From the IMG/VR virus record IMGVR_UViG_2531839130_000015: DNA of 38,838 nucleotides, one strand, 5' to 3'. The notes beneath the pieces are model-generated. The model did not search any database and was not told the origin of the DNA. It worked only from the letters and a program-made list of their open reading frames with translations. Source of the stretch: a virus. Its lineage: Duplodnaviria > Heunggongvirae > Uroviricota > Caudoviricetes. Within the stretch, counting starts at the first letter, position 1; every line of letters starts with the position of its first letter. Positions 1-38,838 of this stretch are shown here, one piece after another. The translations under genes and the position numbers were made by a program.

Positions 1-1362
1 ATGTTTAAACCGGAACTCCTTTCCCCGGCGGGAACGCTGAAAAATATGCGTTACGCTTTCGCTTATGGCGCAGATGCTGTTTATGCGGGCCAGCCGCGTT
101 ATTCCCTGCGTGTGCGCAACAACGAATTCAACCACGAAAATCTTCAGCTCGGCATCAATGAAGCCCACGCGCTGGGGAAAAAGTTTTATGTCGTGGTCAA
201 CATTGCACCGCACAACGCCAAGCTGAAAACCTTTATCCGTGACCTGAAACCGGTGGTGGAAATGGGGCCGGATGCGCTGATTATGTCCGATCCAGGGCTG
301 ATTATGCTGGTGCGTGAGCACTTCCCTGAAATGCCGATCCACCTTTCGGTGCAGGCTAACGCCGTGAACTGGGCGACGGTGAAATTCTGGCAGCAAATGG
401 GCCTGACCCGCGTGATCCTCTCTCGCGAGCTGTCGCTGGAAGAGATTGAAGAGATCCGCAATCAGGTGCCGGATATGGAGATCGAGATCTTCGTTCACGG
501 CGCGCTGTGCATGGCCTACTCCGGTCGCTGCCTGCTCTCTGGCTATATCAACAAGCGCGACCCGAACCAGGGCACCTGCACCAACGCCTGCCGCTGGGAG
601 TACAACGTCCAGGAAGGGAAAGAAGATGATGTTGGCAACATCGTACACAAGTACGAGCCGATTCCGGTGCAAAATGTTGAGCCGACGCTGGGTATCGGCG
701 CACCAACCGACAAAGTGTTTATGATCGAAGAGGCCCAGCGTCCGGGCGAGTATATGACCGCGTTTGAAGATGAGCACGGCACTTACATCATGAACTCGAA
801 AGATCTGCGCGCCATCGCCCATGTAGAACGCCTGACCAAAATGGGCGTGCATTCGCTGAAAATCGAAGGTCGTACCAAATCTTTCTACTATTGTGCACGC
901 ACCGCACAGGTTTACCGCAAAGCTATCGATGACGCCGCTGCGGGAAAACCGTTCGATACCAGCCTGCTGGAAACTCTGGAAGGTCTGGCGCATCGTGGCT
1001 ATACTGAAGGTTTCCTGCGTCGTCATACTCACGACGATTATCAGAACTACGAATACGGTTATTCAGTTTCTGACCGCCAGCAGTTTGTTGGTGAGTTTAC
1101 CGGTGAGCGCAAGGGGGACCTCGCGGCGGTAGCGGTGAAAAATAAATTCTCCGTTGGCGACAGCCTTGAGCTGATGACGCCGCAAGGCAACATTAATTTT
1201 ACCCTTGAGCACATGGAAAACGCCAAAGGCGAAGCTATGCCGATAGCACCAGGCGATGGTTATACTGTGTGGCTCCCGGTCCCGCAGGATCTTGAGCTCA
1301 ATTACGCGCTGCTGATGCGTAATTTCTCCGGGGAAACCACGCGTAATCCCCACGGTAAGTGA
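1..1362 (+). CDS. yegQ: Peptidase U32-family protein YegQ (RlhA, 23S rRNA hydroxycytidine synthase), 453 aa, host gene
   Basis: Full-length ORF starting MFKPELLSPAGTLKNMRYAFAYGADAVYAGQPRYSL, recalled as E. coli YegQ; typical enterobacterial GC-rich codon usage. Confidence 0.85.
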   Translation: MFKPELLSPAGTLKNMRYAFAYGADAVYAGQPRYSLRVRNNEFNHENLQLGINEAHALGKKFYVVVNIAPHNAKLKTFIRDLKPVVEMGPDALIMSDPGLIMLVREHFPEMPIHLSVQANAVNWATVKFWQQMGLTRVILSRELSLEEIEEIRNQVPDMEIEIFVHGALCMAYSGRCLLSGYINKRDPNQGTCTNACRWEYNVQEGKEDDVGNIVHKYEPIPVQNVEPTLGIGAPTDKVFMIEEAQRPGEYMTAFEDEHGTYIMNSKDLRAIAHVERLTKMGVHSLKIEGRTKSFYYCARTAQVYRKAIDDAAAGKPFDTSLLETLEGLAHRGYTEGFLRRHTHDDYQNYEYGYSVSDRQQFVGEFTGERKGDLAAVAVKNKFSVGDSLELMTPQGNINFTLEHMENAKGEAMPIAPGDGYTVWLPVPQDLELNYALLMRNFSGETTRNPHGK

Positions 1363-1446
1363 TTAATTTCGATTATTTTTCCCGGATGGAAAATTCTTAG
1401 AAACCGATCACATACAGCTGTATTTATTAAGGTTATCATCCGTTTC

Positions 1447-1532
1447 GCTGAAAAACATAACCCATAAAATGCTAGCTGTACCAGGAACCACCTCCTTAGC
1501 CTGTGTAATCTCCCTTACACGGGCTTATTTTT
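1447..1532 (+). ncRNA. cyaR: CyaR (RyeE) sRNA; 3' terminator hairpin overlaps the prophage att core
   Basis: Sequence gctgaaaaacataacccataaaatgctagctgtaccaggaaccacctccttagcctgtgtaatctcccttacacgggcttatttttt matches my recollection of cyaR; position directly downstream of yegQ as in E. coli K-12; ends in a stem (gcctgtgtaa/ttacacgggc) plus T-run. Ends approximate. Confidence 0.7.
1504..1530. other. Prophage attachment site core, cyaR-proximal copy
   Basis: About 27-bp sequence aatctcccttacacgggcttatttttta repeated exactly at about 38337..38363; matches the recalled P2 att core; lies between host cyaR and phage ogr. Confidence 0.8.
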
Positions 1533-1635
1533 TACGTACAACAAATTGAAATAAAAGGATTTATTTCTGGTCACGTCCACACATTGACCACATCGACAAA
1601 AAAAGCCCCTCGACTGAGGGGCTTCCTGTTTCTAA

Positions 1636-1854
1636 TTACATCCACATAATTTGCTGCCCTGACGGCAACGGGTGCGGCCTTACGGCGTGGACTTCTCCCG
1701 GCTTCACGATGTATCGCTGTACCGACTCATAAGTGATGAACGTGGCGCTGCAATTCACGTTCTGACACTGGTGATAACGCTCTTTTGTCGTGTCAGTGAT
1801 ATAGCGGCTTGTACGCGCATGTGCGGCATGCTGGCATAAAGGACAATGAAACAT
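1636..1854 (-). CDS. ogr: Ogr, zinc-finger late-gene transcription activator (72 aa); track ORF is N-terminally over-extended
   Basis: MFHCPLCQHAAHARTSRYITDTTKERYHQCQNVNCSATF matches recalled P2 Ogr; start placed at the internal Met (MFHCPLC). Confidence 0.9.
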   Translation of the reverse strand: MFHCPLCQHAAHARTSRYITDTTKERYHQCQNVNCSATFITYESVQRYIVKPGEVHAVRPHPLPSGQQIMWM

Positions 1855-1935
1855 CGCGAGCACCTCTTCCGGTTTTGTTGATGGTGCCATTTTAGTTAAC
1901 TTATCCTTATAAAACAAACAGATAAAATAAAAACA

Positions 1936-3099
1936 TCACTCATCATCTTCTGTTTCGTACTCCACATCAGAAAGCCTGACCTCAAGCTCTAAGGACGTCG
2001 TGAAGCCGGAATTATTCAGAAAGTGTGTCACCTTAGTGATTGTCCAGTCCTGCTCGTCTATGACGCGCTTAAAGCCTGACACTTTGACCGGTGTTTCCGT
2101 GTAAATATCTGCCCGACCGGTAGCCAGGCTGATGGAGAACTCCGCAACGCCCCGTTGCAGTTTATCCCACTTCGCCTGAGCGGCGCGCATGGCCTGCGCT
2201 TTCGTGGCATATACCGTAGTCAGGGCAAAAACGTTGTCAGCCTCACCGGCCATGTATTCACCTTCGCGCGCTTCCGGTACTTTTGGCGCTTTCTTCTGCG
2301 TGACCGGTTTCGCTTTCGGGTGCTCCAGTGCGCGCAGGTGTTTTTCTTTCTTTTTGCGTTTCAGTTTTACCTTCTGCTTTTGTGGTTTCGGGTCTTTGGT
2401 GTGTAACCACTTTGCCGTTACGCCGGTATAGGCTCCACGGTCAGCAATCGCAAAATGATGGCGGTCGCCGTCGTTGCGGGTGATGGTGACCTGCGGGATT
2501 TTTTTACCGCTGGCCGTCACCCCCTGCCCCGCTTTGAGAAACAACAGTTTTCCCATTTTTACCGACACCTCACCGCCGTTGCGTTCTGCAAGACGGGTCA
2601 GGAATTTCGCATCAGACTCCTGCGACTGGTCGATGTGCGGGATTTTAATTCCGGCCAGTGACGGAGCGACACTGGCTTCCAGCCTGTTACGGGAGGCTAT
2701 CGCCTCAACAATCGCACCGAGCGTGGTGTCATGCCAGGAGCCTTCCCGGCGGGAATTGAGCGTCCCGCGGAAATCTGCACTCCGGGCGCGGATGGTGACC
2801 ACATCCGGTGCGCCCCGGTGTTCAACCTCATCAACGGTAAATTTCCCTTTGCATACCAGGGCAAAACCTTTCCAGCCGATATACACCGTCAGGACAGCGC
2901 CACGAACCGGCAGCCCGACCTGCCCGTCGGCATCGTTCAGTTCAATATCAAGCTGGTCAGCCTCAAAGCCCCGGTTATCCGTCAGGGTCATGCTCATCAG
3001 ACGGTCACTGATATTGCCGGTAATATCCCTGCTGTCGAGCATCAGCATGTAATCCGGCGTCAGCGTACTGCCTGCATCAAATGTCAGCGCATCCAGCAT
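1936..3099 (-). CDS. D: Tail protein D (387 aa)
   Basis: Length and sequence match recalled P2 gpD; position between ogr and U. Confidence 0.9.
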   Translation of the reverse strand: MLDALTFDAGSTLTPDYMLMLDSRDITGNISDRLMSMTLTDNRGFEADQLDIELNDADGQVGLPVRGAVLTVYIGWKGFALVCKGKFTVDEVEHRGAPDVVTIRARSADFRGTLNSRREGSWHDTTLGAIVEAIASRNRLEASVAPSLAGIKIPHIDQSQESDAKFLTRLAERNGGEVSVKMGKLLFLKAGQGVTASGKKIPQVTITRNDGDRHHFAIADRGAYTGVTAKWLHTKDPKPQKQKVKLKRKKKEKHLRALEHPKAKPVTQKKAPKVPEAREGEYMAGEADNVFALTTVYATKAQAMRAAQAKWDKLQRGVAEFSISLATGRADIYTETPVKVSGFKRVIDEQDWTITKVTHFLNNSGFTTSLELEVRLSDVEYETEDDE

Positions 3100-3578
3100 T
3101 ATCCCGCCCCCGTCATACCCGTGAATCTGGTCGCCATACTGCCAGCCTTACCGATGAGCGATTCCGCCTGTTTACCGATATCGCCATAAAGCGCGGCCAG
3201 TGATTCATCAACGCGGGTGAGCGACAGCGTAAAATCAATTTTCCGGGGTGTGCCGTCTGCAAAGAAAATACTCCCTGTTTCACTCACCCTGCTGATGACA
3301 TACATGCCGTAAATCATGCCGGTGCCATCCAGCAACGGCCACGCCCGGCCTTCCTCTGCCATCAGCCTGAGCGTGGTCATCGTCAGCTTCCCGCCGGTCA
3401 GTTCGGGATAAAGCACGCCGGCAAGCGTCATGTTTTCCTCACCCACACCGAGAAACTGAAAGGCATCCCGTTTACCGATACGGGAATTTGACGGCCAGCG
3501 ATAATCTGATTCGCGCTGCATGGTCTGGTGTGGCAGCGTCTGGCGCATAAAAACAAACATACCTAACGCGAGCATCAT
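3099..3578 (-). CDS. U: Tail protein U (159 aa)
   Basis: Size and synteny with P2 gpU; start overlaps D stop. Confidence 0.85.
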   Translation of the reverse strand: MMLALGMFVFMRQTLPHQTMQRESDYRWPSNSRIGKRDAFQFLGVGEENMTLAGVLYPELTGGKLTMTTLRLMAEEGRAWPLLDGTGMIYGMYVISRVSETGSIFFADGTPRKIDFTLSLTRVDESLAALYGDIGKQAESLIGKAGSMATRFTGMTGAG

Positions 3579-3592
3579 TTTTCGTCACCTCC

Positions 3593-6040
3593 TTAACCGT
3601 CATGCATCATGCTGGCACGGGCGCGCGCACGTTTATCCCGCTCGTATTTTTCGAGCGCATCCTGTAACTGGCGGTCGAGCTGAGTCCCCGGCGCAGTACC
3701 GCCCGTCAGACTGATGTGATATTCGTTTTTACTCTGGTCCACATAAGAGCGGCCAGCCGGTGCCGTAACCGGCTGATAAGCCTGATAGCCTGCATAAGAG
3801 CTGGTCGCCGGAATATAACCACCGGTGCCATACGTGGCGGCATGAGTCCTTGCGGCGGTCTGGTCAAGTGTGTCTGACTCTTTGTTGATAACACCGAGTT
3901 TTTCCAGTACCCAGTCAATACCACTGCGCAGTTTGTTGAACGCATTAAGCGGCAGCATCAGCACGTCAGCCAGTGCTTGCCCGAACATGACGCCCGTGTC
4001 ACGGCAACGGTTCAGGGTGTCCTGGGTGGCTTTAACCGGGGCAATCAGGTTTTTAAACCACTGCCACGCGGCCTGTAACTTTTCGCCCAGCCAGTCAAAC
4101 ACCGGTTTAAGTGGCGTGAACAGTTCCCCCACCGGCGCAAATGCTGCTTTCAGCCCTTCAACCACACCGCCAAAGAATGCGCTGACAGGCTCCCAGTATT
4201 TACGGATAAGCAACGCCCCGGCGACAATTGCAGCCACCACGGCCACAACCGGCCAGCTAATCGCCCCGATGGCCGTCATAACAGCACTGCCAACCGTCGT
4301 GAAGATTGCCCCCATTGCGCCTGCTGCCGCGATGATGGCATTGATGCCGGTGATAACCGGCCAGGCTACGAGGCCAATTGCACCGATGATGCCAGTCAGC
4401 GCCAGTGCGCCACCGGCAATGATGCCGATGGTTGACGCCAGTGATTTGTTTTTCTGTATCCAGCCGTCGAGTTTTAACACATACTTTGTGGCCGTCTGCG
4501 TGAGCTTACGCAGTGCGCCTTCCTGCTGGTCAAACAGGTCAGTCCCCACTGCCTCATAAGCGGACTGAAACTCTTTAAAGTCACCGCCTAGGTTGTCCTG
4601 CATGATATTTACCAGCTCGGCAGTCTTCCCGTCTGAGGCTTTAAACGCAGCGGTCAGTTTGTCCAGCTTTCCGGTTGAGGCGGCAGTCATCAGCACGGCG
4701 GCGGCTGAGCTGGCCTCCTCCCCGAAAATAGTTTTCATGTATTCAGCCTGCTGGGCAGTACCGAGCCGGTTTTTCTCAAAACTGGCCTGCATTTCTTTCA
4801 GAATGGTAAATATTGGCCGGGTGTTTCCCTTGCTGTCTGAGGTTTTCACTCCAAGCTCTTTGAGTGCATCCCATGCTTTTCCCGTCGGTGCCTGCAGGCG
4901 GCTTAACACGGCACGGCTTCCCGTCCCTGCCATTGAGCCTGTGATTTTTGCATCATGCAGCGCCCCGACCATTGCGGCGGTTTCTTCAATGCTGACACCG
5001 GCATTTTTTGCCACAGGTGCGGCATAGGTCAGCGCATCGCTCATGCCGTCAAAATCGGCGGCGGTTTTGTTCATCGTCATGGAGAGAACATCCCCGATAT
5101 GAGCGACCTTATCGTTTGAAAGCTGAAAGGCGGATTTCATCCCCATCAGCAGGGCGGCGTTTTCTTCCATCGTGCGGCGGTTCGCCAGCGCCATATTCAG
5201 CGTGACCGGCGTTGCCGCCTGAATGGCATCAACATCCCCACCCGCTTTCGCGATGATTATCTGTGCACCGGCCGCATCATCCGCCGAGGCGGCAGTATTG
5301 TCACCGAGCTGGCGCGCCTGCTTGCGGAGTGCGGCCATTTCGGCGGAGTCTTTTGCCACACCTAGCACGGCCTGCAATTCTGAGTTTTTCTGCGCAAACT
5401 CATAACCGGGCATCAGTAGCTTAACACCGGCCATCGTTCCCGCCGCCGCAATCCCCACACCGGCAGCGCCCACCGAGGCCATATTTCCGGCCAGTTCCTT
5501 TCCGGCCTGATAACGCTGTTTGACTGCGTTAAGTTTTGCCTGTTGCGCACTGACACGCGCCAGCGCGTCACGCTGACGGTTAAGCTGTACGGTGGTTTCA
5601 CTGATACGATTTTTCAGTCCCTGCTCATCATGTGCAAGATTGCGGGTATTAATTCCCACAGCGGCCAGTTCCCGCTGCTGGCGTTTAACGGAATCTGTCA
5701 GGCGGTTATATTTCGCCTGTAAGTCCTCCGCCGCACGCTTTGCGGATTCCAGGACTTTCGCCTGAGCACGGGTCGGACGTTCGGTGTTTTTAAACTGTGT
5801 GGCAAGGGCTTCAGCTTCCTGCCGTGCCTTTTCAAGTGCATGACCAGTCACGGCAAGCTGTGCACTGGTCTTGCGAAATCCCTCAATACGGGATGCGTGA
5901 CCGTTCAGCTCGCGCAGTGATTTTTGTGTTTCCCGGATATCCCCCGACAGCGACTTACTCGCTGTGCGGATGGATTTAAACGGGCGGGATGCCTGGTCAA
6001 CAGCCCTGAGCAATACCTGTAATTTTACATTGTTACTCAT
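3593..6040 (-). CDS. T: Tail tape measure protein T (815 aa)
   Basis: Long Ala/Gly-rich coiled-coil protein with central hydrophobic block, size and position as P2 gpT. Confidence 0.9.
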   Translation of the reverse strand: MSNNVKLQVLLRAVDQASRPFKSIRTASKSLSGDIRETQKSLRELNGHASRIEGFRKTSAQLAVTGHALEKARQEAEALATQFKNTERPTRAQAKVLESAKRAAEDLQAKYNRLTDSVKRQQRELAAVGINTRNLAHDEQGLKNRISETTVQLNRQRDALARVSAQQAKLNAVKQRYQAGKELAGNMASVGAAGVGIAAAGTMAGVKLLMPGYEFAQKNSELQAVLGVAKDSAEMAALRKQARQLGDNTAASADDAAGAQIIIAKAGGDVDAIQAATPVTLNMALANRRTMEENAALLMGMKSAFQLSNDKVAHIGDVLSMTMNKTAADFDGMSDALTYAAPVAKNAGVSIEETAAMVGALHDAKITGSMAGTGSRAVLSRLQAPTGKAWDALKELGVKTSDSKGNTRPIFTILKEMQASFEKNRLGTAQQAEYMKTIFGEEASSAAAVLMTAASTGKLDKLTAAFKASDGKTAELVNIMQDNLGGDFKEFQSAYEAVGTDLFDQQEGALRKLTQTATKYVLKLDGWIQKNKSLASTIGIIAGGALALTGIIGAIGLVAWPVITGINAIIAAAGAMGAIFTTVGSAVMTAIGAISWPVVAVVAAIVAGALLIRKYWEPVSAFFGGVVEGLKAAFAPVGELFTPLKPVFDWLGEKLQAAWQWFKNLIAPVKATQDTLNRCRDTGVMFGQALADVLMLPLNAFNKLRSGIDWVLEKLGVINKESDTLDQTAARTHAATYGTGGYIPATSSYAGYQAYQPVTAPAGRSYVDQSKNEYHISLTGGTAPGTQLDRQLQDALEKYERDKRARARASMMHDG

Positions 6041-6460
6041 TCGTGTTTCCGCTTCGCCGGAGCGCCTTTTCGCGCCATGTGATGAGTTCGGTCAGGCTCA
6101 TGGGATACAGTTCTGATGGCGGCCAGTGAAATATCACTGCCACATCCGCCATCAGGTCATCGACCGAGAGATTTTTCGGAAACGTCACTGCACCGAGTTC
6201 GGCGACAAAAAACCGACCACCTTACCGGCCAGCGCCACAAGGTCAGGCAGTTCCAGCGCGGCGACTTCCTGCTCGGTCAGCATCGGTGCCGTCATGCGCG
6301 GCAGCACCTTAATCAGTGCATCGACTTCGGAGTTTGCAACCGCAGCCAGACTGACACCGCGCAGCGTCCCGGCATTGGGTTTTATCAGCGTGACCTGTTC
6401 GATAACCTGCTCACCACGTTTGACCGGATTGTCCAGGGTAATGACATTTTCTTTGTTCAT
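6033..6460 (-). CDS. E+E': E+E' fusion made by programmed -1 translational frameshift at the slippery run GGTTTTTTG (minus strand, about 6203..6211)
   Basis: Codons GGT TTT TTG (G-F-L) near the 3' end of E form a T-run slippery site; the hand-translated -1 frame continues about 57 codons (VAELGAVTFPKNLSVDDLMADVAVIFHWPPSELYPMSLTELITWREKALRRSGNTNE) to a TAA just inside the start of T, giving about 142-145 aa as for P2 E+E'. Confidence 0.7.
6185..6460 (-). CDS. E: Tail assembly chaperone E (91 aa)
   Basis: MNKENVITLDNPVKRGEQVIEQVTLIKPNAGTLRG matches recalled P2 gpE. Confidence 0.9.
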   Translation of the reverse strand: MNKENVITLDNPVKRGEQVIEQVTLIKPNAGTLRGVSLAAVANSEVDALIKVLPRMTAPMLTEQEVAALELPDLVALAGKVVGFLSPNSVQ

Positions 6461-6516
6461 GGTTTTCTCACTTCTGAATCAGGGTTAACCGGTCAGCCTG
6501 GCTGACCGGATGAAAA

Positions 6517-7035
6517 TCACAGGCCGATATTTCGGCGGTGTTGCTCCAGCCGGTCGACGCCGTTCACCTTCTCAATCATGTTAATGGTGTCGATTTCGAC
6601 CAGCTCCTTACCGTCCATCGTCAGCCGGAAATAGGTGCAGACCACGGAGATTTTCGACTCAGTGTCTTCTCCCTGTTTCCCCTCGCCGGTGTCGATTTCT
6701 TTCTGACGTCCACGCATGACCACCTCGACGGCCACCGTTTCGCCGGTATCGTCGCGCTGGTAAGAGCCAGCAAAACGAATCGGTACGGCATCCACACCGG
6801 TTGCGGCGTAAAGCTCCCAGATAACCGAATCCGGGAAGCCACCGAGCGACCACTCCATTGACAGCGCATCGTCATCAAGGCCGAGGTCTACCGGTGCGCT
6901 GCCGTTCATCCCCGCACCGCGATAGTTTTCGAGTTTACGGGTCAGTTTTGGTAGCGTGACGGACTTTGCAACGCCCTGATAGCTGTAGCCGTTCAGAAAG
7001 ACGTTCATTAACTTGAGTTTGCGCGGCATTGCCAT
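6517..7035 (-). CDS. FII: Tail tube protein FII (172 aa)
   Basis: Size and synteny with P2 gpFII. Confidence 0.9.
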   Translation of the reverse strand: MAMPRKLKLMNVFLNGYSYQGVAKSVTLPKLTRKLENYRGAGMNGSAPVDLGLDDDALSMEWSLGGFPDSVIWELYAATGVDAVPIRFAGSYQRDDTGETVAVEVVMRGRQKEIDTGEGKQGEDTESKISVVCTYFRLTMDGKELVEIDTINMIEKVNGVDRLEQHRRNIGL

Positions 7036-7047
7036 CGGTCAGGCTCC

Positions 7048-8238
7048 TTAATTGCTGTTAACCGAGGTGACCAGATTCGCCAGGTATTTATCGGTAATAC
7101 GCTGGCGCAGGGTCAGGTTTTCAAGAGGAGGCACCGGGGTATAGTCGTAGTCGATATACAGTTTTCCGGCCTTGAGGGTTTCCGCATCGTTGGATTCTTC
7201 GCTGAACCAGCATGAGCCATCCACGATATAGCCGTTTGTTTTCAGCTCACGGAATTTGGCATTGATGCCGTCAACGATGTCGCGAATCAGCGTTGCGGTG
7301 ATGGGCTTGTCCACCGCCCACATGTGCGCCTCAGCCATCGTGTCGGCCAGCACCTGCGCGGTGCGTGTGTAGTTTTCAAAGAGAAACAGCGGGTCATCAG
7401 AGCAGGTACGGTTACCCCAGAAGCGGAAACCGTCGCGGCGAATCAGCGTAGTGACGCCTGACTCGTTAAGCAGGTCAGCATCGGTGCCGGACTCCTGCAA
7501 ATCCCAGAATACAGAGGCGCTGATGCCGGTAACACCGTTCACCCCGACGTTGGACAGCGTTTTATGCCAGCCCTGCTCCTGGTCGATTTTAGCGCGCAGA
7601 CCCAGCGCACGGGCGGTGGCATACGCGGTGGCAGTGGTACTGGTGACCGTATCCCATGCGAGGAAATCCGGCCAGATGACCATCAGCTCACGCTGGCTGA
7701 AATTCTGGCGGTAGGCTTTCACCTCGGAAATGGTCTTACAGCCCCATGCGCTGATATATCCGAAAGCGCGCAGCTTCTGACAGACGGATGCCAGTGCAAC
7801 AGCCACCTCTTTGGTGTCCAGCCCCGGCACACCGAGAATACGCGGTTTAACACCGGTTACCGACTCCGCCGCCAGCAGGGCTTTCAGTCCGGTGTACTGA
7901 CCGTTTTCGTCGGTGGTTCCGATGATATTGGAAACAGTCTGCGCGAGTTTCGTTTCTTCGTCTTCGCCGGTGCCGTCTTCCACACGCACGACAACGGTGA
8001 CCGGTTTTGACTGGTCGGCGATGGCCTGCAACGATGCCGCCAGCGTGCCTTTTTTACCGGCCTTTGCAATTGCGCTCTGCACATTGGTAATCAGCACCGG
8101 TTTATTGAGGGGGAAGGTTTCCGCATCCGCATCGCTGGCTGTGCAGACCATGCCGACAATGGCGGTGGATACGGTGGAAATGACGCGGGTGCCGTCGTTA
8201 ATCTCCAGCACCTGCACGCCGTGATGATAGTCACTCAT
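7048..8238 (-). CDS. FI: Contractile tail sheath protein FI (396 aa)
   Basis: Size and synteny with P2 gpFI; MSDYHHGVQVLEINDGTRVIS start. Confidence 0.9.
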   Translation of the reverse strand: MSDYHHGVQVLEINDGTRVISTVSTAIVGMVCTASDADAETFPLNKPVLITNVQSAIAKAGKKGTLAASLQAIADQSKPVTVVVRVEDGTGEDEETKLAQTVSNIIGTTDENGQYTGLKALLAAESVTGVKPRILGVPGLDTKEVAVALASVCQKLRAFGYISAWGCKTISEVKAYRQNFSQRELMVIWPDFLAWDTVTSTTATAYATARALGLRAKIDQEQGWHKTLSNVGVNGVTGISASVFWDLQESGTDADLLNESGVTTLIRRDGFRFWGNRTCSDDPLFLFENYTRTAQVLADTMAEAHMWAVDKPITATLIRDIVDGINAKFRELKTNGYIVDGSCWFSEESNDAETLKAGKLYIDYDYTPVPPLENLTLRQRITDKYLANLVTSVNSN

Positions 8239-8327
8239 CCGTTTAACTCCGTGGTTAATGGGTGCAACTATTTTCTGTTGGGCAGAGCATGAGACGCTAT
8301 TTGACCTGGCTGGTCAGTGGATGAAAC

Positions 8328-8361
8328 AACAGATAAAGAAAAGGCGGGCAATTCGCCCGCC
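8328..8361 (-). terminator. Intrinsic terminator on the minus strand upstream of FI, separating the cargo locus from the FI operon
   Basis: Minus strand reads GGCGGGCGAATTGCCCGCC followed by TTTTCTTTAT; the late promoter for the FI operon should lie in the about 90 bp between this hairpin and the FI start (not resolved). Confidence 0.55.
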
Positions 8362-8661
8362 TGTCCTGATTTGTACTCACTCATTTTCCGCCTGACAATT
8401 TACATAGCCCAAATGCTATCAAATCTGACAGTCTGCTTTGAGCGAGAAACGGACGTTATAGATAGTGTGTTAAGGTTTTCTCTTTAATTGCAATGTCATA
8501 TCCTCAACGACCAAGTAGTGACATTTTTCGTTATTATATGGTATTGTGTTAGAATTAATTTATTGATGCGAAATCATTCAAAGCTTCATTGGTACTTATA
8601 TTTAACTTATAATCTTAATTAAAGAATTTCTTATTTTTAGATATTTTTATGCAAATACTTA

Positions 8662-9414: not shown

Positions 9415-9440
9415 TATCATTACTTATTAACATAGTAGAG

Positions 9441-9464
9441 ATTAAACTACGTCCGCTCCTGGCA
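9441..9464. repeat. Palindromic hairpin GTCCGCT-N10-AGCGGAC, copy 1 of a three-member family
   Basis: Read directly from sequence: gtccgctcctggcaagcagcggac. Confidence 0.6.
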
Positions 9465-9484
9465 AGCAGCGGACATTGCTGGCT

Positions 9485-9506
9485 GAGTTGAGGGTCCGCT
9501 GTGAGC
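9485..9506. repeat. Palindromic hairpin TCCGCT-N10-AGCGGA, copy 2
   Basis: Read directly from sequence: tccgctgtgagcgaggagcgga, 20 nt after copy 1. Confidence 0.6.
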
Positions 9507-11620: not shown

Positions 11621-11681
11621 TGTCAGATCAGGCTTTACTCTGTGCCATAGATATGTAAGCTCACACCAGAGCTCATACAAC

Positions 11682-12209: not shown

Positions 12210-12212
12210 AAA

Positions 12213-24689: not shown

Positions 24690-24692
24690 CGG

Positions 24693-29828: not shown

Positions 29829-29847
29829 GTGCTTTCCCCGCCTCGCC
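29829..29847. other. cos site (19-nt cohesive end sequence), internal to the prophage
   Basis: gtgctttccccgcctcgcc is the reverse complement of the recalled P2 cohesive end GGCGAGGCGGGGAAAGCAC; located between Q and the tin/old-position cargo as expected. Confidence 0.7.
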
Positions 29848-29990
29848 CGCCCGCTTCATGGGGCGGTTTTAATGCAGGTGCATCATCCCCCCCCGGCAAG
29901 CGCCTGTTCTGGTGCTCGCTGTCAAAAGATATATTTGAAAATGAATGCAAATTTATGCACCTAATGCAGGCGAGGCTAAAAAGAACATCT

Positions 29991-31313: not shown

Positions 31314-31396
31314 CGATAATAATTCCTTATAAGTTATTAATGCACGACTACTAAAGCATTGCTTCAGATTTGTTAATGTATCATGATGACATCAGT

Positions 31397-33670
31397 TTAA
31401 GAAAACATCACCCAGTCGTCTTTTACAGCATAACTAAACCGCTCACCGTCATAAATTACTGTTGCCCCGCGCGCCAACGCCTCAAGCTCCCATCGCTGCG
31501 GCCTGATACCGTTCTGAGCAAGGTCAACGCGGATACGGGTAATTTGCATTCTTTCCGACCGGGTCAGTCTGGCCGATGGTGCAATTTCATGTGGTTTTAA
31601 CGGGCTTCCGTTTCTTTGCTGACGATTTGGCGTTCTCAGGCCGTGTTTTAATGCGCCCCTGAGCGCCCTAACAACCTCCGGGTCATTCCATTCTATAACC
31701 CCGTCATCAACCAGATTAAGCACTGCTGCAGCGTGCTCAGACGGTGTGGGAGCCTGTAATGAAGTATCACCACCGGTGAGCTTTCCACAGTTATTGACAG
31801 GACTCCGAGGCGCGGCGATGCCGCTTTTTAAAGTCAAAGGCTCAACGACCGGAACTTTCGGAACAATGCGCCAGTCCGTCGTTCTGGTGATATGAATATG
31901 ACGCGCGCCGAGATGCGGCGCGTAAATGCCGACCACTCTCTCGACTTCTTCCTCGTACTCGTTAACTTCATCCGACGGGCTACGGGCAACCCTGACAGTC
32001 TGACAATCGCGCGGGACATTTGCCCCACCCTGCGCGCTGATATACAACGCAAAATCACCACTGTCTGCGGCGGCGCGTGCAGCCTCGACGCGCTCGTCAA
32101 ACTCATCAGCAATGCTGACGCCGCTAGGCAATTTGCGTAGTTCACGGTAAGCCCCCATTGTCGGCAGGCCAACCGTTTTAAATTGTGGGATACGCCACGT
32201 TGACGCCCATGCGGTAACAGCCGCTGCAGTATCTTTCAGCGGCTTGCCGGTATCGTTATCGAGCTGACCATCCAGTGCATAGCCGTCGATGTTTTTTGAA
32301 ATGTATTTCGCGATATACCCCGCAGCACCGCCCCGGTTAAGATGTTTTGCCTGAAAACGGTTTCGCGCAGCTCCTCTTTCGTCGCCATCCTCTTTGAGCG
32401 CGTAGCGACGCATGATTTCAATAATCTGGTTACGCTGGCGTGGATTACAAAAAAGCATCATATGCCAGTGCGGCGTTCCGTCGTGGTGTGGCTCGACGAC
32501 TCGCAAACCGTAGACCTGTAAATCATTATCCTTGAATGCCGTGCGCATCAGGCTCCAGATACGGCAGAGATATCGCTGCGCATCCTTTGGATTAAATGCC
32601 TCATCATTCCAGCCGTGATTAAGCTGGACGGTTTTACTTTCGCCTTTTCCGACCTGACGTGTCGGGTGATACTTTGACGGCGCGGTCAGCGTGATAAACA
32701 TCCCCACATCGCCCTCTGCGGCGGCGTAACGCTCAATACCGGCAATGGTGTTCATCAGCTCCATCCGGCGAATTTCAGGATTAGAAATACTGCCCATCAC
32801 CTTACTGATAAGGTCGATGCGCTCGCCGGTTTCCCTGTTTTCAAGGTCACACGATTTAAGAAATTCCAGATTTGCCTGGCGGCGCGCACGCACATCACGA
32901 ATGGCATGTTTACTGGCATAAGGAGAACGGTCTTTATTCACCTCCCCGACAGCAATCAGTAACGCCTCATGCCAGCGCATACGCTGGCCTTTAAGCTGAC
33001 TAATCCACCACTCATCGTTAAACAGGCGGGCAATGGCAGAATATGCCTGCCTCGTGGTCATCTGTCCTTTACGGTATTTTTTCCAGAAAAGCGGGGAAAT
33101 ATTGAAAGCACGTGCAGCGCCAGCAACATGACCATACAGATGCGCCTGCGCCTCATCTGTAAACAGCGATTCTTTCTCGCCATGTGCATCAACCCAGGCA
33201 TCGCAGAGTTCCTCATACATCATGAAAAGCTGCGATGAAATACGGGCGGCAAACTTTTTCAGCTCCTTGTCATTCATCCCCGGCAGACGCGCATAATGGT
33301 CACGCTCTGCCAGAAACAGCAACGACGCGTCGGTGTTCATTTCATGGCGCTGATTCACGCGCTCAATACGCGGCCATAAACGGCGCTGAAAAGTGGATGT
33401 GAGGAAATAAAACCCGTGTAGCGGGCTTTTATTGCGCCGTATGTAGTCATAACGTGAAGTAAACAGCGAGCGCAAAAAGTAAGGCAGGCGGTTAATCGTG
33501 GATAAAACACCTTGCACCTGACGCATCTCGTCACGTGTAAGGGGTCTTTCGCGCCCGACAGCCTCGCGTGGCGTATTCCATGCATAAGCACCGGTAAACG
33601 CCTTACCGGTGCCTGCGGCAAACGCAGACGGAGGTACGCAGGTGTATTGCTCCTGGAAAGAATGACTCAT
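31397..33670 (-). CDS. A: Replication initiation endonuclease A (757 aa)
   Basis: Sequence matches recalled P2 gpA (rolling-circle initiator, about 761 aa). Confidence 0.9.
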   Translation of the reverse strand: MSHSFQEQYTCVPPSAFAAGTGKAFTGAYAWNTPREAVGRERPLTRDEMRQVQGVLSTINRLPYFLRSLFTSRYDYIRRNKSPLHGFYFLTSTFQRRLWPRIERVNQRHEMNTDASLLFLAERDHYARLPGMNDKELKKFAARISSQLFMMYEELCDAWVDAHGEKESLFTDEAQAHLYGHVAGAARAFNISPLFWKKYRKGQMTTRQAYSAIARLFNDEWWISQLKGQRMRWHEALLIAVGEVNKDRSPYASKHAIRDVRARRQANLEFLKSCDLENRETGERIDLISKVMGSISNPEIRRMELMNTIAGIERYAAAEGDVGMFITLTAPSKYHPTRQVGKGESKTVQLNHGWNDEAFNPKDAQRYLCRIWSLMRTAFKDNDLQVYGLRVVEPHHDGTPHWHMMLFCNPRQRNQIIEIMRRYALKEDGDERGAARNRFQAKHLNRGGAAGYIAKYISKNIDGYALDGQLDNDTGKPLKDTAAAVTAWASTWRIPQFKTVGLPTMGAYRELRKLPSGVSIADEFDERVEAARAAADSGDFALYISAQGGANVPRDCQTVRVARSPSDEVNEYEEEVERVVGIYAPHLGARHIHITRTTDWRIVPKVPVVEPLTLKSGIAAPRSPVNNCGKLTGGDTSLQAPTPSEHAAAVLNLVDDGVIEWNDPEVVRALRGALKHGLRTPNRQQRNGSPLKPHEIAPSARLTRSERMQITRIRVDLAQNGIRPQRWELEALARGATVIYDGERFSYAVKDDWVMFS

Positions 33671-34674
33671 TCACATACACCGGCATAGACACTACTGCAA
33701 ACGGCTTTATCATTCGCCGAAGCCAGTAAATCAAACTGAGTACCCCCACGCGTTGTCATTGTCCAGTCATGGTAGGTTTCAATTCCGTATGCCTCGACTG
33801 TTACAACCTCAATACGACGTTCTGCGCGTAACGGATCATGTGTGGATGGGAAAAAAGTGGAATTTCCCCGACGGGAGCACGACGCAACCAGTCGTTCCCA
33901 TTCAGCAACCCGCTTTATTTCCTCCGGCCACCGGCGAAAAATTTCTGCCAGTTCAGATTTACGGACATGAATACATGGCATACAACCAACACGGCCACAC
34001 CCCTGCTGATATAACGGATTTGGCTTAATGTCATGTCTTCTGGCTATTGCAAATACATCTTCATGCTTCCAGTGCAAAATCGGGCGATATACATGCAATC
34101 CGGGGGTGTTGTCTGCATCCTCTTCCCAGACAGGTAAAGCTGCGCGTGATGGCGATTCCTGAGCACGCACTCCCTGCCAGCTAATCACTTCCTCAAATTC
34201 ATTGAGTAAAGGCAGGATTACCTGAGAACGCACGGGTTCATGTTTCAGTTCAAATGTGCAAAATCTGGCTTTGGTTGATGGGAAACGCCCCTTCCACAGA
34301 CACAAATCAAGAAACGGGATACCCGTTGGTTTGAGAATTTCCAGCGCACAACTGATGCGCTGGTGCGCTTCTTCTTCCGACATTCCACAATCGTTAACCA
34401 ACAAATCAGGCCATTTGGTCTGGATAAACTTGCGCTTTGATTCAATCCGGCAGGAAAAATCAGCCCTGACCCTTTTAATTGGGCCAAGCCGTTTTTCCAG
34501 ATAATCCAGATATTTCATTGTCTGTGGATGTTCATGTCCCGTATCAGCAAAAACCGGCAATATGGGTACATTTTCTTCAATAGCGACAAGCCACTGAGCA
34601 AGGCTGTCCTTTCCACCTGAAACAAAAATAACATTGATGGTATTTTCAGTATGGCAACGAGCATCAGTAATCAT
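33667..34674 (-). CDS. PAPS-reductase-like PP-loop ATP pyrophosphatase family protein (335 aa) with a C-terminal Cys cluster
   Basis: PP-loop motif VIFVSGGKDSLA; cysteine cluster GCGRVGCMPC; stop overlaps the ATG of gene A. Confidence 0.7.
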   Translation of the reverse strand: MITDARCHTENTINVIFVSGGKDSLAQWLVAIEENVPILPVFADTGHEHPQTMKYLDYLEKRLGPIKRVRADFSCRIESKRKFIQTKWPDLLVNDCGMSEEEAHQRISCALEILKPTGIPFLDLCLWKGRFPSTKARFCTFELKHEPVRSQVILPLLNEFEEVISWQGVRAQESPSRAALPVWEEDADNTPGLHVYRPILHWKHEDVFAIARRHDIKPNPLYQQGCGRVGCMPCIHVRKSELAEIFRRWPEEIKRVAEWERLVASCSRRGNSTFFPSTHDPLRAERRIEVVTVEAYGIETYHDWTMTTRGGTQFDLLASANDKAVCSSVYAGVCE

Positions 34675-34949
34675 TCAGACGCTCCTCTGGAGAACGCCTC
34701 TGAACAACGCTTGCTGAGCTGCTCAACCTGCGTGTTTAAATCGGCAAAAGATTTTGCGCTTCCGGTCAGAATATCGTGATGCATCAGGCCGGAAACGAGC
34801 TGGCTTAATTTCGGATAATAACCAACCACCGCCAGCCATTCCTGACCGGCGTTTTTACCGCTTTCCGCTCTCTTTTTCTCGTGGAGAATAAACTGAAAGC
34901 TGTCACTGGTAACGACATAACGTTCGCCAATTTCAATACGAATACTCAT
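34671..34949 (-). CDS. Early-operon small protein (92 aa), function unknown
   Basis: Overlapping start/stop coupling within the B-to-A early operon. Confidence 0.5.
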   Translation of the reverse strand: MSIRIEIGERYVVTSDSFQFILHEKKRAESGKNAGQEWLAVVGYYPKLSQLVSGLMHHDILTGSAKSFADLNTQVEQLSKRCSEAFSRGASE

Positions 34950-35170
34950 GCCGTTCTCCGGTAATGCTTGTTTTTTGCTTCAAAGACTGACTGGCAGGAA
35001 ACACAACGCGTGGCTGACGGATAAGCCGCACGACGGGCAGCAGGTATTGGCGCGTCACACTCTTCGCAAACCAGCGCAGAAACACCGCAATGTTTTACCC
35101 TTGCCGCGTTAATCTGGCGCTCCAGTAATTCAGCCTGTTGTTCCTGAATAAAATCTACGTTGTCCGGCAT
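34946..35170 (-). CDS. DksA/TraR-family C4 zinc-finger protein (74 aa)
   Basis: CxxC...CxxC pattern (CEECDAPIP...CVSCQ) typical of TraR-like proteins; similar protein recalled in the P2 early operon. Confidence 0.7.
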   Translation of the reverse strand: MPDNVDFIQEQQAELLERQINAARVKHCGVSALVCEECDAPIPAARRAAYPSATRCVSCQSVFEAKNKHYRRTA

Positions 35171-35475
35171 TACCAGCTCCTTTTGTCGTTCAGCTTCTTA
35201 AATTCATCAGCGCAATAACTGGCGATTTCTGTCGTTAATTTCGTCAGTTCATCCACTGAGGAAATTTGCTTGTGGAATACAGCGCGTTTAACAAGTAAAT
35301 TGACCACATCAGACAGGAGGTTTAATTCATTCTGATAAATCGCGATAACAGATTCAGTGATGTCGCGTTTTTCTTTATCAAGACAAAGTTGAATAAGAGA
35401 CAAATCACCATTTTCCATAACGGCGATTTTTAAGGCGTTATTCAGTAATACAACTGAATGAGAACAGGACATCAA
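35170..35475 (-). CDS. Early-operon small protein (101 aa), function unknown
   Basis: Translationally coupled ORF in the early operon. Confidence 0.5.
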
Positions 35476-35729
35476 AGTACCTCCCCGCGAGACAATCCGA
35501 TATTGTGAAATTTTTCCGACTCCTGACTGAGCAGCTCAACTATCTCCACGCGGGATAACTCCGCCTTTGTGATGTGGCGAATCATGGCGTCAAGATGAGA
35601 AGAAAAGCGCGTCGCCGCGTCGGCCTGTGCTTCGGTTCTGGCCTGTTGCAGCAGTAATGCGTATTTACCGCACTGATTTTCAGAAACTGTATGCATGACT
35701 TTCTCCAGGCAAAAAGAAGCCCCGCACAA
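35472..35729 (-). CDS. Early-operon small protein (85 aa), function unknown
   Basis: Translationally coupled ORF in the early operon. Confidence 0.5.
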
Positions 35730-35759
35730 TTAAGTGCGTTAAAAACTCTGGTTAATTAC

Positions 35760-36266
35760 TTAATGCAGATATTGCTCTGGTTTTACCGACGTCAGAATTG
35801 TCGGTGCATACTCAAACAGGCTGAATAATTCACGTAATGCACGGAATAAAGCATCACGCCAGTAACATGACTCTTCATTAATTCGCCAGTATGGCTGGTT
35901 GAATTCTTTTTCAGTCAATCCGGCATGCATAAATAAAGTACGACGCTGACTGACTGTTAAAAAACTAATATATGCATACTCACTTGCACCGACCTGACGG
36001 CGTTTTGAGAATGCCCCACGCAATTCATCAATTGCACAAACCAGCCGTTCACGTTCGACGTCGTTCATTTCTTCAAAACGCATCGTTGCGTGACGTTGTT
36101 TTAACTGCGCATGAAAGCAAACTGTTAGCCGTTCGCGCTCCATCATCTGATTATAATAATCACATGTATCCTGCCAGCGAGGAACGGCAAGATGCTTACC
36201 AATTATCCGGCGCATGGTTGCTGGCTGTTTTTCAACGAGATTGAGCGTCATCACTGTCATTTCCAT
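35760..36266 (-). CDS. B: Replication protein B (helicase loader), about 166-168 aa
   Basis: MTVMTLNLVEKQPA.MRRIIGKHLAVPRWQDTCDYYNQMMERERLTV matches recalled P2 gpB; true start may be 2 codons downstream of the track start. Confidence 0.85.
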   Translation of the reverse strand: MEMTVMTLNLVEKQPATMRRIIGKHLAVPRWQDTCDYYNQMMERERLTVCFHAQLKQRHATMRFEEMNDVERERLVCAIDELRGAFSKRRQVGASEYAYISFLTVSQRRTLFMHAGLTEKEFNQPYWRINEESCYWRDALFRALRELFSLFEYAPTILTSVKPEQYLH

Positions 36267-36451
36267 ACCCTCCGGCTTTTCAGAAAGGTCAGAGCCTTTT
36301 TTAACGGACTCTGTTTTTTGGTGCGGATAATGATTCCCTTACGCCCCTTACCGTGGGTGATGGTGAAGTCAATCGCCCTGGGGCTTTCGTTACGCAGTAA
36401 CTGAGCAATACAACGAGGCTCACTCATACGGTTCTCCTTAACGTGGTTCAC
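36257..36451 (-). CDS. Small ORF between cox and B (orf78-like), uncertain
   Basis: Position corresponds to the small ORF between cox and B in P2; internal AAGGAG then ATG (MSEPRC...) suggests a shorter product; my manual coordinate count here disagreed with the track by 1 nt. Confidence 0.35.
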   Translation of the reverse strand: MNHVKENRMSEPRCIAQLLRNESPRAIDFTITHGKGRKGIIIRTKKQSPLKKALTFLKSRRVWK

Positions 36452-36713
36452 CGAGACCTAACCACATCAACCAGCCGTCACGAATCTCTTTAGGGCGGCT
36501 TTCATAAGCCAGTTTTAGTCCATTATTCCATGCCGGAAGGTATACCCAATATTCACCTGCACGACCTGAAGCTGATTGTGGATCGGTCATATCAATTACA
36601 GGCAGCTTTCCTTTATCGATCATCCGACGAACCGCTCCTGTCGATTTTCCTATTAGTTTTGCGAACTCCTGATAAGGAATCGCATCAGTCATGAGTGTTA
36701 CTTGCTTGCTCAT
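36438..36713 (-). CDS. cox: Cox, excisionase and repressor of the lysogenic promoter (91 aa)
   Basis: MSKQVTLMTDAIPYQEFAKLIGKSTGAVRRMIDKGKLPVIDMTD matches recalled P2 Cox. Confidence 0.9.
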   Translation of the reverse strand: MSKQVTLMTDAIPYQEFAKLIGKSTGAVRRMIDKGKLPVIDMTDPQSASGRAGEYWVYLPAWNNGLKLAYESRPKEIRDGWLMWLGLGEPR

Positions 36714-36827
36714 GTCGTCCCCCAGCCCTCATGAATTGCGTTTAATGCCTTATAATGCCTTTTAGTGCCCACATCCAAGCACTAAACAATCTACATCTAA
36801 ACTAAATACTATTGAGATCTAAACACT
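36714..36827. promoter_or_regulatory. Immunity switch region: divergent early (cox side) and lysogenic (C side) promoters with direct-repeat operator half-sites
   Basis: ATCTAAAC occurs twice in direct orientation about 22 bp apart (acATCTAAACtaaatactattgagATCTAAACac), consistent with P2 C-repressor operators. Confidence 0.65.
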
Positions 36828-37127
36828 ATGTCAAACACGATAAGCGAGAAGATAGTCTTAATGCGAAAATCAGAGTATTTGAGCAGACAACAACTTGCTG
36901 ATTTAACAGGGGTACCGTATGGCACGCTGAGTTACTATGAAAGTGGTCGTTCAACACCTCCAACAGATGTCATGATGAACATCCTGCAGACCCCACAATT
37001 CACCAAATACACTTTATGGTTCATGACCAATCAGGTCGCTCCTGAGTCCGGGCAAATTGCGCCCGCTCTCGCACACTTTGGGCAAAACGAAACAACGTCG
37101 CCCCACTCCGGTCAAAAGACTGGTTAA
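36828..37127 (+). CDS. C: Immunity repressor C (99 aa)
   Basis: MSNTISEKIVLMRKSEYLSRQQLADLTGVPYGTLSYYESGRS matches recalled P2 C. Confidence 0.9.
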   Translation: MSNTISEKIVLMRKSEYLSRQQLADLTGVPYGTLSYYESGRSTPPTDVMMNILQTPQFTKYTLWFMTNQVAPESGQIAPALAHFGQNETTSPHSGQKTG

Positions 37128-37242
37128 CAATTCATCGTGAATATATTCATCACAAGTGCCTACTATTGGTGGCTAAATTTCAGCCACCACGAAAAAAGCG
37201 ATTAGTAGTCGCAAAAAAACACACCACTCGGAGGGTTTTCTG

Positions 37243-38256
37243 ATGGCAATCAAAAAACTCGATGATGGTCGATATGAAGTGGACATCCGCCCTACTGGAC
37301 GTAATGGAAAACGCATCCGTAGGAAGTTTGATAAGAAAAGCGAAGCTGTCGCTTTCGAGAAATACACGTTGTACAACCACCACAATAAAGAATGGCTATC
37401 AAAACCAACAGACAAGCGACGTCTGTCGGAGCTGACACAGATCTGGTGGGATTTAAAGGGTAAACACGAAGAGCATGGGAAATCTAATCTTGGAAAAATT
37501 GAAATCTTCACAAAAATAACGAATGACCCATGCGCATTTCAAATTACGAAATCGCTTATCAGCCAGTACTGCGCCACCCGAAGAAGTCAGGGTATTAAAC
37601 CTTCGAGTATCAATCGTGATTTAACATGTATTAGCGGCATGTTTACAGCCCTGATTGAAGCGGAGTTATTCTTTGGTGAGCACCCTATCAGAGGGACAAA
37701 AAGGCTTAAGGAGGAAAAACCAGACACAGGCTATCTCACGCAGGAAGAAATTGCCTTACTGCTTGCTGCTCTTGACGGCGACAACAAAAAGATTGCGATT
37801 CTTTGCCTGAGCACTGGAGCACGTTGGGGAGAAGCAGCTCGTTTGAAAGCAGAAAATATCATCCATAACCGCGTCACGTTTGTTAAAACGAAAACAAACA
37901 AACCACGCACCGTCCCGATCTCAGAGGCTGTTGCCAAAATGATCGCGGATAACAAACGAGGTTTTTTATTCCCTGATGCTGATTACCCTCGCTTCAGACG
38001 AACAATGAAAGCAATAAAACCGGATTTGCCAATGGGGCAAGCCACACATGCACTAAGGCACAGCTTTGCCACTCATTTCATGATTAATGGAGGAAGTATT
38101 ATCACGCTACAACGGATACTAGGTCACACGCGGATTGAGCAAACTATGGTTTACGCTCATTTTGCGCCAGAGTACCTTCAGGACGCCATTTCTCTTAATC
38201 CGCTAAGAGGTGGTACTGAGGCCGAGAGTGTCCACACAGTGTCCACAGTAGAGTAA
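37243..38256 (+). CDS. int: Tyrosine integrase Int (337 aa)
   Basis: P2 Int-like sequence with C-terminal R...HxxR...Y catalytic pattern (ALRHSFATH ... MVYAHF); directly upstream of the att core. Confidence 0.9.
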   Translation: MAIKKLDDGRYEVDIRPTGRNGKRIRRKFDKKSEAVAFEKYTLYNHHNKEWLSKPTDKRRLSELTQIWWDLKGKHEEHGKSNLGKIEIFTKITNDPCAFQITKSLISQYCATRRSQGIKPSSINRDLTCISGMFTALIEAELFFGEHPIRGTKRLKEEKPDTGYLTQEEIALLLAALDGDNKKIAILCLSTGARWGEAARLKAENIIHNRVTFVKTKTNKPRTVPISEAVAKMIADNKRGFLFPDADYPRFRRTMKAIKPDLPMGQATHALRHSFATHFMINGGSIITLQRILGHTRIEQTMVYAHFAPEYLQDAISLNPLRGGTEAESVHTVSTVE

Positions 38257-38336
38257 CGTTTAAGGGCTTTCAGTGGTAATTTATGCCGCTCAAACCCGCA
38301 TTGTACCGTTGAAAGCCCCTACTGGTGACACCCTAA

Positions 38337-38363
38337 ATCTCCCTTACACGGGCTTATTTTTTA
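38337..38363. other. Prophage attachment site core, int-proximal copy
   Basis: Exact second copy of aatctcccttacacgggcttatttttta. Confidence 0.8.
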
Positions 38364-38520
38364 TGCATAAGCCCTATCCCTGGTCACCGTCTTCCATTGA
38401 CCACATCGATAGAATCTCCCTTCATAGCACGATGCCTTTCACGTAACGGCATCGTGCTCGCACAGGTTCCGGCTAAGCACAACCAGAACGCGCATGTTTG
38501 ACGCTTACCAAAAAATATTC

Positions 38521-38838
38521 TCACTCTCCACATTTGAATGTCAGACGAGCGACGCCATGTAATCCTGCACCTTCTGTCTTCAGGTCAACTATCTGCATTT
38601 TTTTGCCCTGAGTAACACAGAAATGGGCTGCATCATTTTTTACTATATTTTCTGCACCAGATATTCTGCCCCTGGCTAAAGAAGCTTCGGCTTCGGTGTA
38701 GTATTGGTTATCGAGTTTACGCTGAATATTACTTTTATATGCAAGACCAAATTTACCGATACTTGTCTCATCATTATGCACAGCACAACCAGACATAATA
38801 AAAATACTAATTAATGATATAGCAGCTATCTTTTTCAT
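38521..38838 (-). CDS. yegR: Lipoprotein YegR (105 aa), host gene
   Basis: MKKIAAISLISIFIMSGCAVHN lipoprotein signal; recalled as E. coli yegR, the next gene after the cyaR-associated prophage remnant in K-12. Confidence 0.75.
   Translation of the reverse strand: MKKIAAISLISIFIMSGCAVHNDETSIGKFGLAYKSNIQRKLDNQYYTEAEASLARGRISGAENIVKNDAAHFCVTQGKKMQIVDLKTEGAGLHGVARLTFKCGE

Follow-up and report, generated by a model that had tools for sequence, protein, structure and literature searches.

A P2-type prophage in the cyaR terminator with an IS21-family insertion in tail gene R and low-GC accessory cargo

The DNA analyzed here is a stretch of 38,838 nucleotides filed as virus record IMGVR_UViG_2531839130_000015 (hereafter, the window), whose gene content and order reveal a P2-like (Peduovirus) temperate myovirus prophage of 36.8 kb lying between yegQ/cyaR and yegR. 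A first-pass annotation had described it as a full-length occupant of this site, with P2 synteny, 27-bp copies of the attachment (att) core at both ends and an internal cos site, and as departing from P2 chiefly in its cargo and at the tail-fiber tip. Comparison with P2 and with Escherichia coli genomes bore out the backbone, the site and the boundaries, and added two features that this description had overlooked: an insertion sequence (IS) that splits the tail gene R, and an extra gene of the PAPS reductase family in the early operon.

The left chromosomal flank is yegQ/trhP (1-1362, plus strand), which is 99% identical to K-12 trhP and is named yegQ by PGAP in strain 504838; the window begins at its start codon and ends within yegR, the right flank (38521-38838, minus strand). 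The small RNA gene cyaR (1445-1530, plus strand) matches the Rfam RF00112 CyaR model over its full length (positions 1-85 of 85, 100.7 bits), and the match overlaps the left copy of an exact 28-nt direct repeat, AATCTCCCTTACACGGGCTTATTTTTTA, found at 1507-1534 (attL) and again at 38336-38363 (attR). The first 27 nt are the P2 attP core (P2 24356-24382), so the predicted core copies are present at both ends and bound the element, the exact repeat being 28 rather than 27 nt long. The bracketing of 97%-identical P2 DNA by such a repeat is not a chance event. The left copy of the core consists of the 3′ half of the cyaR terminator and its T-run; because the phage carries the same core, its integration rebuilds an intact cyaR. 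The P-arm Int-binding region of attP, now within attL, was placed at 1569-1596 by transfer from the P2 annotation (24293-24320) through a 97% alignment.

The cyaR gene is a documented P2 prophage site, occupied by Wphi2 in E. coli W, by P2*B in E. coli B and by ogr-D′ in K-12 (PMC3032704), all of which share the attachment site of the window prophage. The corresponding interval of K-12 MG1655 runs from cyaR through the cryptic prophage PR-X, which consists of ogrK and the yegZ pseudogene and is the remnant that the first-pass annotation had named, to yegR. Window positions 1-2142 and 38345-38838 are contiguous in K-12 (99% and 96% identity); PR-X has thus retained only ogr and the 3′ end of D (equivalent to 1507-2142 joined to 38345 onward), whereas the window has the whole genome. 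The K-12 remnant is thus the expected leftover if such an element lost everything from a point within D up to the attR core. A P2-type int joined to this yegR flank was found in 812 of 5,426 complete E. coli genomes, and E. coli O157:H7 TR01 (NZ_CP033605.1, 2837939-2838309) has an int-attR-yegR junction with 100% identity to the one in the window.

Between the two cores the backbone is that of P2. Against NC_001895, blastn gave eight collinear blocks, which are 96-98% identical except in G and at the end of H (86.5%) and cover 26.2 kb, or 78% of P2, and tblastn with all P2 proteins recovered 37 backbone genes in the P2 order with no stop in any alignment. Essentially the whole length was covered for 34 of the 37, with 92-100% amino acid (aa) identity over the conserved parts; as exceptions, A and orf83 are short by a few residues at their ends, H departs from its P2 counterpart beyond residue 251, and R is in two pieces. 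The genes are collinear with P2 from Q P / O N M L X Y K lysABC R S / V W J I H G / FI FII E T U D ogr to int C cox B A, and identity at the protein level reaches 99.7% for Int, 99.0% for C and 100% for both Cox and Ogr. The best megablast matches among 50,697 phage records were P2, Wphi, L-413C, pro147 and other Peduovirus genomes. Because only 78% of P2 can be aligned, we infer that the prophage represents a different species of Peduovirus by the usual 95% whole-genome criterion. It shares with P2 the gene order, the att core, cos, Int, C, Cox and all the structural genes; it differs in having unrelated cargo in place of fun(Z), orf30 and orf91/tin/old, in the PAPS-reductase-family gene and the IS in R, and in the middle and tip of H, which includes two additional 44-aa repeats. 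The divergence of the cargo loci and the fiber tip was correctly foreseen.

The modules follow one another along the window as in P2. The ogr gene and the F tail operon (1636-8238, minus strand; 98-100% aa identity to the P2 proteins by tblastn, full length, without stops) comprise ogr (1636-1854), D (1936-3099), U (3099-3578), T (3593-6040), E/E′ (about 6040-6460), FII (6517-7035) and FI (7048-8238). The V operon (11682-16861, minus strand) comprises G (11682-12209), H (12213-14435), I (14446-14976), J (14969-15877), W (15882-16229) and V (16226-16861). The tail completion gene S is intact (17893-18345, minus strand; 97% aa identity), and the rest of the O operon, with the lysis and head genes lysC, lysB, lysA, K, Y, X, L, M, N and O (21354-26679, minus strand), is full length at 95-100%. 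The large terminase subunit P and the portal Q (26853-29659, plus strand; 99.4-99.7%) are followed by the cos site that had been predicted, a 19-nt cohesive end at 29829-29847 identical to the reverse complement of P2 positions 1-19, where the P2 cosL and cosR alignments abut. Further on are the replication initiator nickase A (31397-33670, minus strand; 96% over residues 10-755), the early operon genes orf83, orf82, orf81, orf80, B, orf78 and cox (34671-36713, minus strand; 92-100%), the immunity repressor gene C (36828-37127) and int (37243-38256), the last two on the plus strand (36828-38256; 99.0% and 99.7%).

The R gene is interrupted by an IS21-family (ISEc12-like) element of 2,581 bp (18454-21034, minus strand), which has no counterpart in P2. 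Its two genes, both on the minus strand, are istA (19300-20841), whose 513-aa product matches NCBIfam transpos_IS21 (9e-92, 307.7 bits; cut-off 160), and istB (18539-19288), whose 249-aa product, the IstB helper ATPase, matches IS21_help_AAA (2e-80, 270 bits; cut-off 200); the Pfam matches in the IS proteins were IstB_IS21 (2e-67), rve and Mu-transpos_C_2. The ends read TG...CA (TGCGTATT... and ...AATACGCA) and form imperfect terminal inverted repeats with reiterated GGAGATC motifs. The 5-bp target duplication AACCT lies at 18449-18453 and 21035-21039, where P2 has a single CACCT. This combination of a DDE transposase (istA), an AAA+ helper (istB), TG...CA ends, reiterated terminal repeats and a 5-bp duplication is that of ISEc12-like IS21 elements, and related copies are named 'IS21-like element ISEc12 family' by PGAP. 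The sampled end of the IS shares 96-99% identity with other copies in E. coli, whereas the position in R is unique to the window among the 5,426 genomes.

The insertion leaves a 5′ fragment of R with codons 1-119 (21035-21391, minus strand), which carries the right AACCT copy and matches Pfam P2_Phage_GpR over positions 1-118 of 133 and R residues 1-119 in tblastn, and a 3′ fragment with codons about 119-155 (about 18338-18453, minus strand), which carries the left copy. In the P2 record (NC_001895), R is annotated as 'essential tail gene; tail completion'. Since the IS splits this gene, the prophage is most likely unable to make infectious particles by itself, unless gpR is supplied in trans. 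The description as a full-length occupant thus holds in that the whole P2-type genome is present, but R is split, so the prophage is probably defective for virion production. It is quite unlikely that the prophage is instead fully functional and inducible, with an IS that has no effect on virion production. Such a prophage would agree with the lack of stops or frameshifts in the other backbone genes, with the P2-identical att, cos, int, cox and C, and with the orientation of the IS, which is that of the late operon, so that read-through could transcribe S; but 2.58 kb split R at about codon 119 of 155, in a gene annotated as essential in P2, and the junction is missing from both the closest relative (strain 504838, described below) and the 5,426 complete genomes, which fits a recent, unselected lesion.

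This relative is the prophage at the same yegQ-yegR site in strain 504838 (NZ_CP025856), which is 99.8% identical over window positions 1-18453 and has the same cargo A, cargo B and H/G. It differs in having an intact R, no IS, no PAPS gene and, with no annotated gene separating A from Q, no cargo C, and in an internal stop in the baseplate gene V (L002 21490-22125). Among the 5,426 complete E. coli genomes, the R::IS junction was absent, and the single full-coverage match has the IS elsewhere. The absence of the junction, together with the intact R of 504838, indicates that the insertion is a recent, strain-specific event. 504838 has the stop in V and an intact R, and in the window R is split; sister prophages at the cyaR site were thus hit independently in different tail genes. 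A different ISEc12 insertion lies near R/S of a P2-like prophage in strain GN04171 (NZ_CP095520.1, 4726561-4727140), and in KE54 an ISEc12-family copy adjoins a sheath gene fragment of a P2-like prophage; insertions of this family in P2-like tail genes may be recurrent. In a Logan contig, SRR32337740_69188 (L016), cox-C-int follows immediately on cargo A and a truncated G (window 8323-11958 and 36558-38415), as if a prophage of this type had undergone a large internal deletion, unless the contig is an assembly artefact.

Decay at this site raises the question of whether the prophage is long dead, a cryptic element heading to a K-12-like remnant and kept only as a chromosomal defense island. 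The site does decay to remnants elsewhere, as in K-12 PR-X, an IS insertion is typical of the onset of domestication, and the stop in V of 504838 and the direct joining of G′ to cox in the metagenomic contig point the same way. Yet the window has a single lesion: apart from R, no stop or frameshift was found in the backbone, which is 92-100% identical to P2 at the amino acid level, and the att cores are still exact, a pattern that argues for very recent inactivation rather than long decay. We therefore regard a long-dead prophage as unlikely.

The two parts of the element on either side of the IS have different relatives. The left part is 99.8% identical to 504838, whereas the right part reaches at best about 97.6-98.5% identity to other genomes, the switch coinciding with the IS, and the whole window occurs in no complete genome of the E. 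coli collection. This would also be expected of an assembly or recombination chimera of two P2-like prophages, since near-identical pairs of such prophages in E. coli strains can collapse in assembly (PMC3032704). However, there is a single, ordered copy of each backbone gene, a perfect 5-bp target duplication marks the borders of the IS with the two R fragments, as in genuine transposition, both chromosomal flanks come from one locus, and recombination mosaicism is the norm for P2 hotspots (PMC13586616); we consider a chimera highly unlikely. The different relatives of the two parts fit modular recombination at the P2 hotspots.

We are highly confident that the window holds a P2-type prophage at cyaR that is intact apart from the IS-split R and carries low-GC accessory cargo. 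In this account, a P2-type tyrosine integrase inserted the phage into the classical P2 site locI, the 27-nt core in the 3′ half of the cyaR terminator, leaving a rebuilt cyaR at attL and a second core at attR next to int. The modules for immunity, integration/excision, replication, packaging, head, lysis and tail are of P2 type and intact, except for R, into which an ISEc12-like element transposed after integration, at about codon 119, making the 5-bp duplication. Such a prophage would still confer P2 immunity and express its cargo, and would probably excise and replicate, but the assembly of infectious particles is most likely blocked unless gpR is supplied in trans. Several points weigh against this account. 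The truncated gpR keeps 118 of 155 residues, and the R fragment with IS read-through could in principle keep some activity. The IS adds 2.6 kb to the genome, which is 36.8 kb as compared with 33.6 kb for P2, and this may bear on packaging. Finally, with halves that have different closest relatives, the element is a recombinant mosaic and not a clonal descendant of any sequenced phage. P2 integration at locI/cyaR, the K-12 remnant and the P2 hotspots are already known, and the prophage itself is textbook; its interest is that it captures the beginning of prophage domestication within exact boundaries, with one IS in an essential tail gene and the rest intact.

The accessory cargo lies at the variable loci of P2. 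None of fun(Z), orf30 and orf91/tin/old was found in the window by tblastn; their places are taken by segments with a guanine-plus-cytosine (GC) content of 34-37%, as opposed to 55-57% for the backbone. Rapidly swapped defense systems are known to accumulate in P2 at hotspots in the gpA-gpQ interval and among the tail genes (PMC9122126, PMC13586616); hotspots in the tail genes and in the int-to-primase interval are explicitly included in PMC13586616. From their positions, the accessory genes at the three variable loci and at the early-operon site most likely act in lysogenic conversion, against phages or against defense systems.

Cargo A (8458-11592; GC 36.5%) replaces fun(Z) and contains two genes. 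The first encodes a divergent GIY-YIG-like protein of 250 aa (8662-9414, plus strand) from a family of 147 representative clusters. The GIY-YIG catalytic set (Y126, Y142, G144, R151, E207 and N219) is invariant in 40 homologues; in a relaxed search the protein scored E-values of 0.03 and 0.09 with the Pfam GIY-YIG models, under the gathering score, and at E ≤ 0.01 nine of the 40 homologues match GIY_YIG_2 and three match GIY-YIG. The protein has no sequence match in the PDB. The second gene (9790-11325, minus strand) encodes a 511-aa protein with three N-terminal transmembrane segments followed by an all-helical soluble domain (AlphaFold2 pLDDT 83.5), for which the best-matching solved structures are generic helical repeats. 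Among 37 gamma- and beta-proteobacterial homologues, the motif FEIMVHEGIHQGLQDH (residues 317-337) has an invariant H326, D331 and H332, with H322 and E323 near-invariant, and this HExxH-like H322-E323-x-x-H326, D331, H332 cluster might form a metal site.

The 511-aa protein has homologues in Delftia, beside Lamassu-like genes, and in P. aeruginosa, inside an integrase island, both without the 250-aa partner, and the two genes are therefore probably independent of one another, as judged by gene neighborhood; the 250-aa protein is also found without the 511-aa gene (contig L012). A conserved two-gene system is thus not supported, and the gene convergent with the P. aeruginosa 511-aa homologue is not homologous to that of the 250-aa protein. 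At the DNA level, only the 511-aa gene of cargo A was matched in the phage collection, by Klebsiella phage-plasmids at 74%. The whole cassette (window 8431-11619) recurs at 99.75% identity in Logan contig SRR8502398_339 (L011 3308-6496), where it adjoins a P4-type integrase and an AAA_21 ATPase and carries about 27 nt of P2 backbone on each side; this reflects either a transfer between elements or a k-mer assembly chimera.

Cargo B (16862-17890; GC 34.5%), which replaces orf30, has no P2 match. It encodes a 247-aa protein (16945-17688, plus strand) whose family, consisting of seven clusters, keeps an invariant L-R-N-I-x-T-H-Q (RNxxxH) motif; the only family match was PHROG 12680, of unknown function. 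A 59%-identical relative, the only member for which the context was examined, belongs to a distant P2-like phage and is likewise flanked by S and V. A relationship to the HEPN family of cargo C was rejected, as profile-profile comparison shows none, and so was one to P2 orf30, to which the protein has no similarity. Neither the cargo B DNA nor the cargo C DNA had a match in the phage collection.

Cargo C (29877-31445; GC 36.3%) replaces old/tin/orf91 at the main P2 defense hotspot between A and Q. Its 440-aa product (29991-31313, minus strand) has a C-terminal HEPN domain, the fold being accompanied by the R-x4-6-H catalytic motif, with an invariant R356 and a near-invariant H361; this R356-x4-H361 motif is conserved in a family of 29 clusters across Gammaproteobacteria. 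The gene occurs in 46 of the 5,426 genomes, always beside gpA and under the PGAP name 'HEPN domain-containing protein'. The protein (WP_032190067) has been listed as a single-gene 'HEPN_Apea' P2-hotspot locus, where it is catalogued only (Rousset et al. 2022, Table S5A); the 'Putative HEPN' from P2 that was experimentally tested in the same study, on plasmid pFR103, is a different protein. ApeA, a single-gene anti-phage tRNase, was considered as the identity of cargo C, which is likewise a single gene in a defense hotspot and whose product has its HEPN domain at the C-terminus and carries an R-x4-H motif. The ApeA-type labels were given by others (HEPN_Apea or Apea-like in UniRef, and the HH-based Table S5A of Rousset 2022), and by hmmscan against the ApeA/HEPN_Apea profiles the 440-aa protein had no PADLOC, Pfam or NCBIfam match (for Pfam, even at E ≤ 10). 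Cargo C has 440 aa with an alpha/beta N-terminal half, whereas ApeA is a predominantly helical, three-domain protein of about 580 aa (10.64898/2026.01.26.701840). With no match to the PADLOC and Pfam profiles, and with a size and an N-terminal fold unlike those of characterized ApeA, the protein is not classed as ApeA here. The cargo C gene lies 83 nt downstream of A on the same strand, in the position of P2 orf91, and is not antisense like old and tin; because of this arrangement, its transcription could be coupled to that of the early lytic operon instead of taking place in the lysogen.

The extra early-operon gene, absent from P2, lies between orf83 and A (33667-34674, minus strand). Its 335-aa product matches Pfam PAPS_reduct (PF01507; 5e-35, 121.4 bits against a gathering cut-off of 22.5) and gives partial PADLOC matches that are SspD/BrxP/DndC-like. 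It falls under the NCBIfam cut-offs for the CysH and DndC equivalogs and can therefore be assigned to the PAPS reductase family but to no specific function within it. Yersinia phage P37 and Peduovirus OU784746 have a 79%-identical gene at this position, and the literature on phage PAPS reductases yielded no mechanism; a phage DNA-modification or anti-defense function is a possibility.

The 250-, 511-, 247- and 440-aa proteins have no match at E ≤ 0.01 in Pfam, PADLOC or NCBIfam; relaxing the Pfam search added only the GIY-YIG matches under the gathering score, and promoter and terminator scans of the cargo regions gave nothing informative. The cargo amounts to four compact candidate defense genes with conserved catalytic-looking residues, and the only novelty of the element would lie in a defense role of these uncharacterized genes. 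It is slightly less likely than not that at least one of the HEPN, GIY-YIG-like, membrane-anchored helical and RNxxxH proteins is a new anti-phage (abortive-infection) system. It tells against a defense function that the case is argued from position, composition and motifs, and that none of the four proteins matches a PADLOC model.

The tail fiber protein H has 740 aa as compared with 669 aa in P2, with a divergent middle and tip. At 13450-13895 the gene contains 3.4 tandem copies of a 132-nt unit (a 44-aa Phage_fiber_2 repeat) at 92% identity, and all three copies align to one P2 segment (P2 13252-13461).

The bacterial side of the attachment site itself resembles a decayed P2 arm. Beyond attR, the chromosomal sequence at 38364-38470 resembles the P2 P-arm segment at 1535-1640: after a 16-nt gap comes CTGGTCAC...CATTGACCACATCGA, and positions 38375-38414 share 75% identity with 1562-1601, with 15 consecutive nt that match exactly and are in register with the Int arm sites. 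Next comes a hairpin, at the place of the P2 ogr terminator. Because K-12 has the same P-arm-like sequence (L003 2823-2940), this native attB flank looks like the fossil attL of an older P2-type element.

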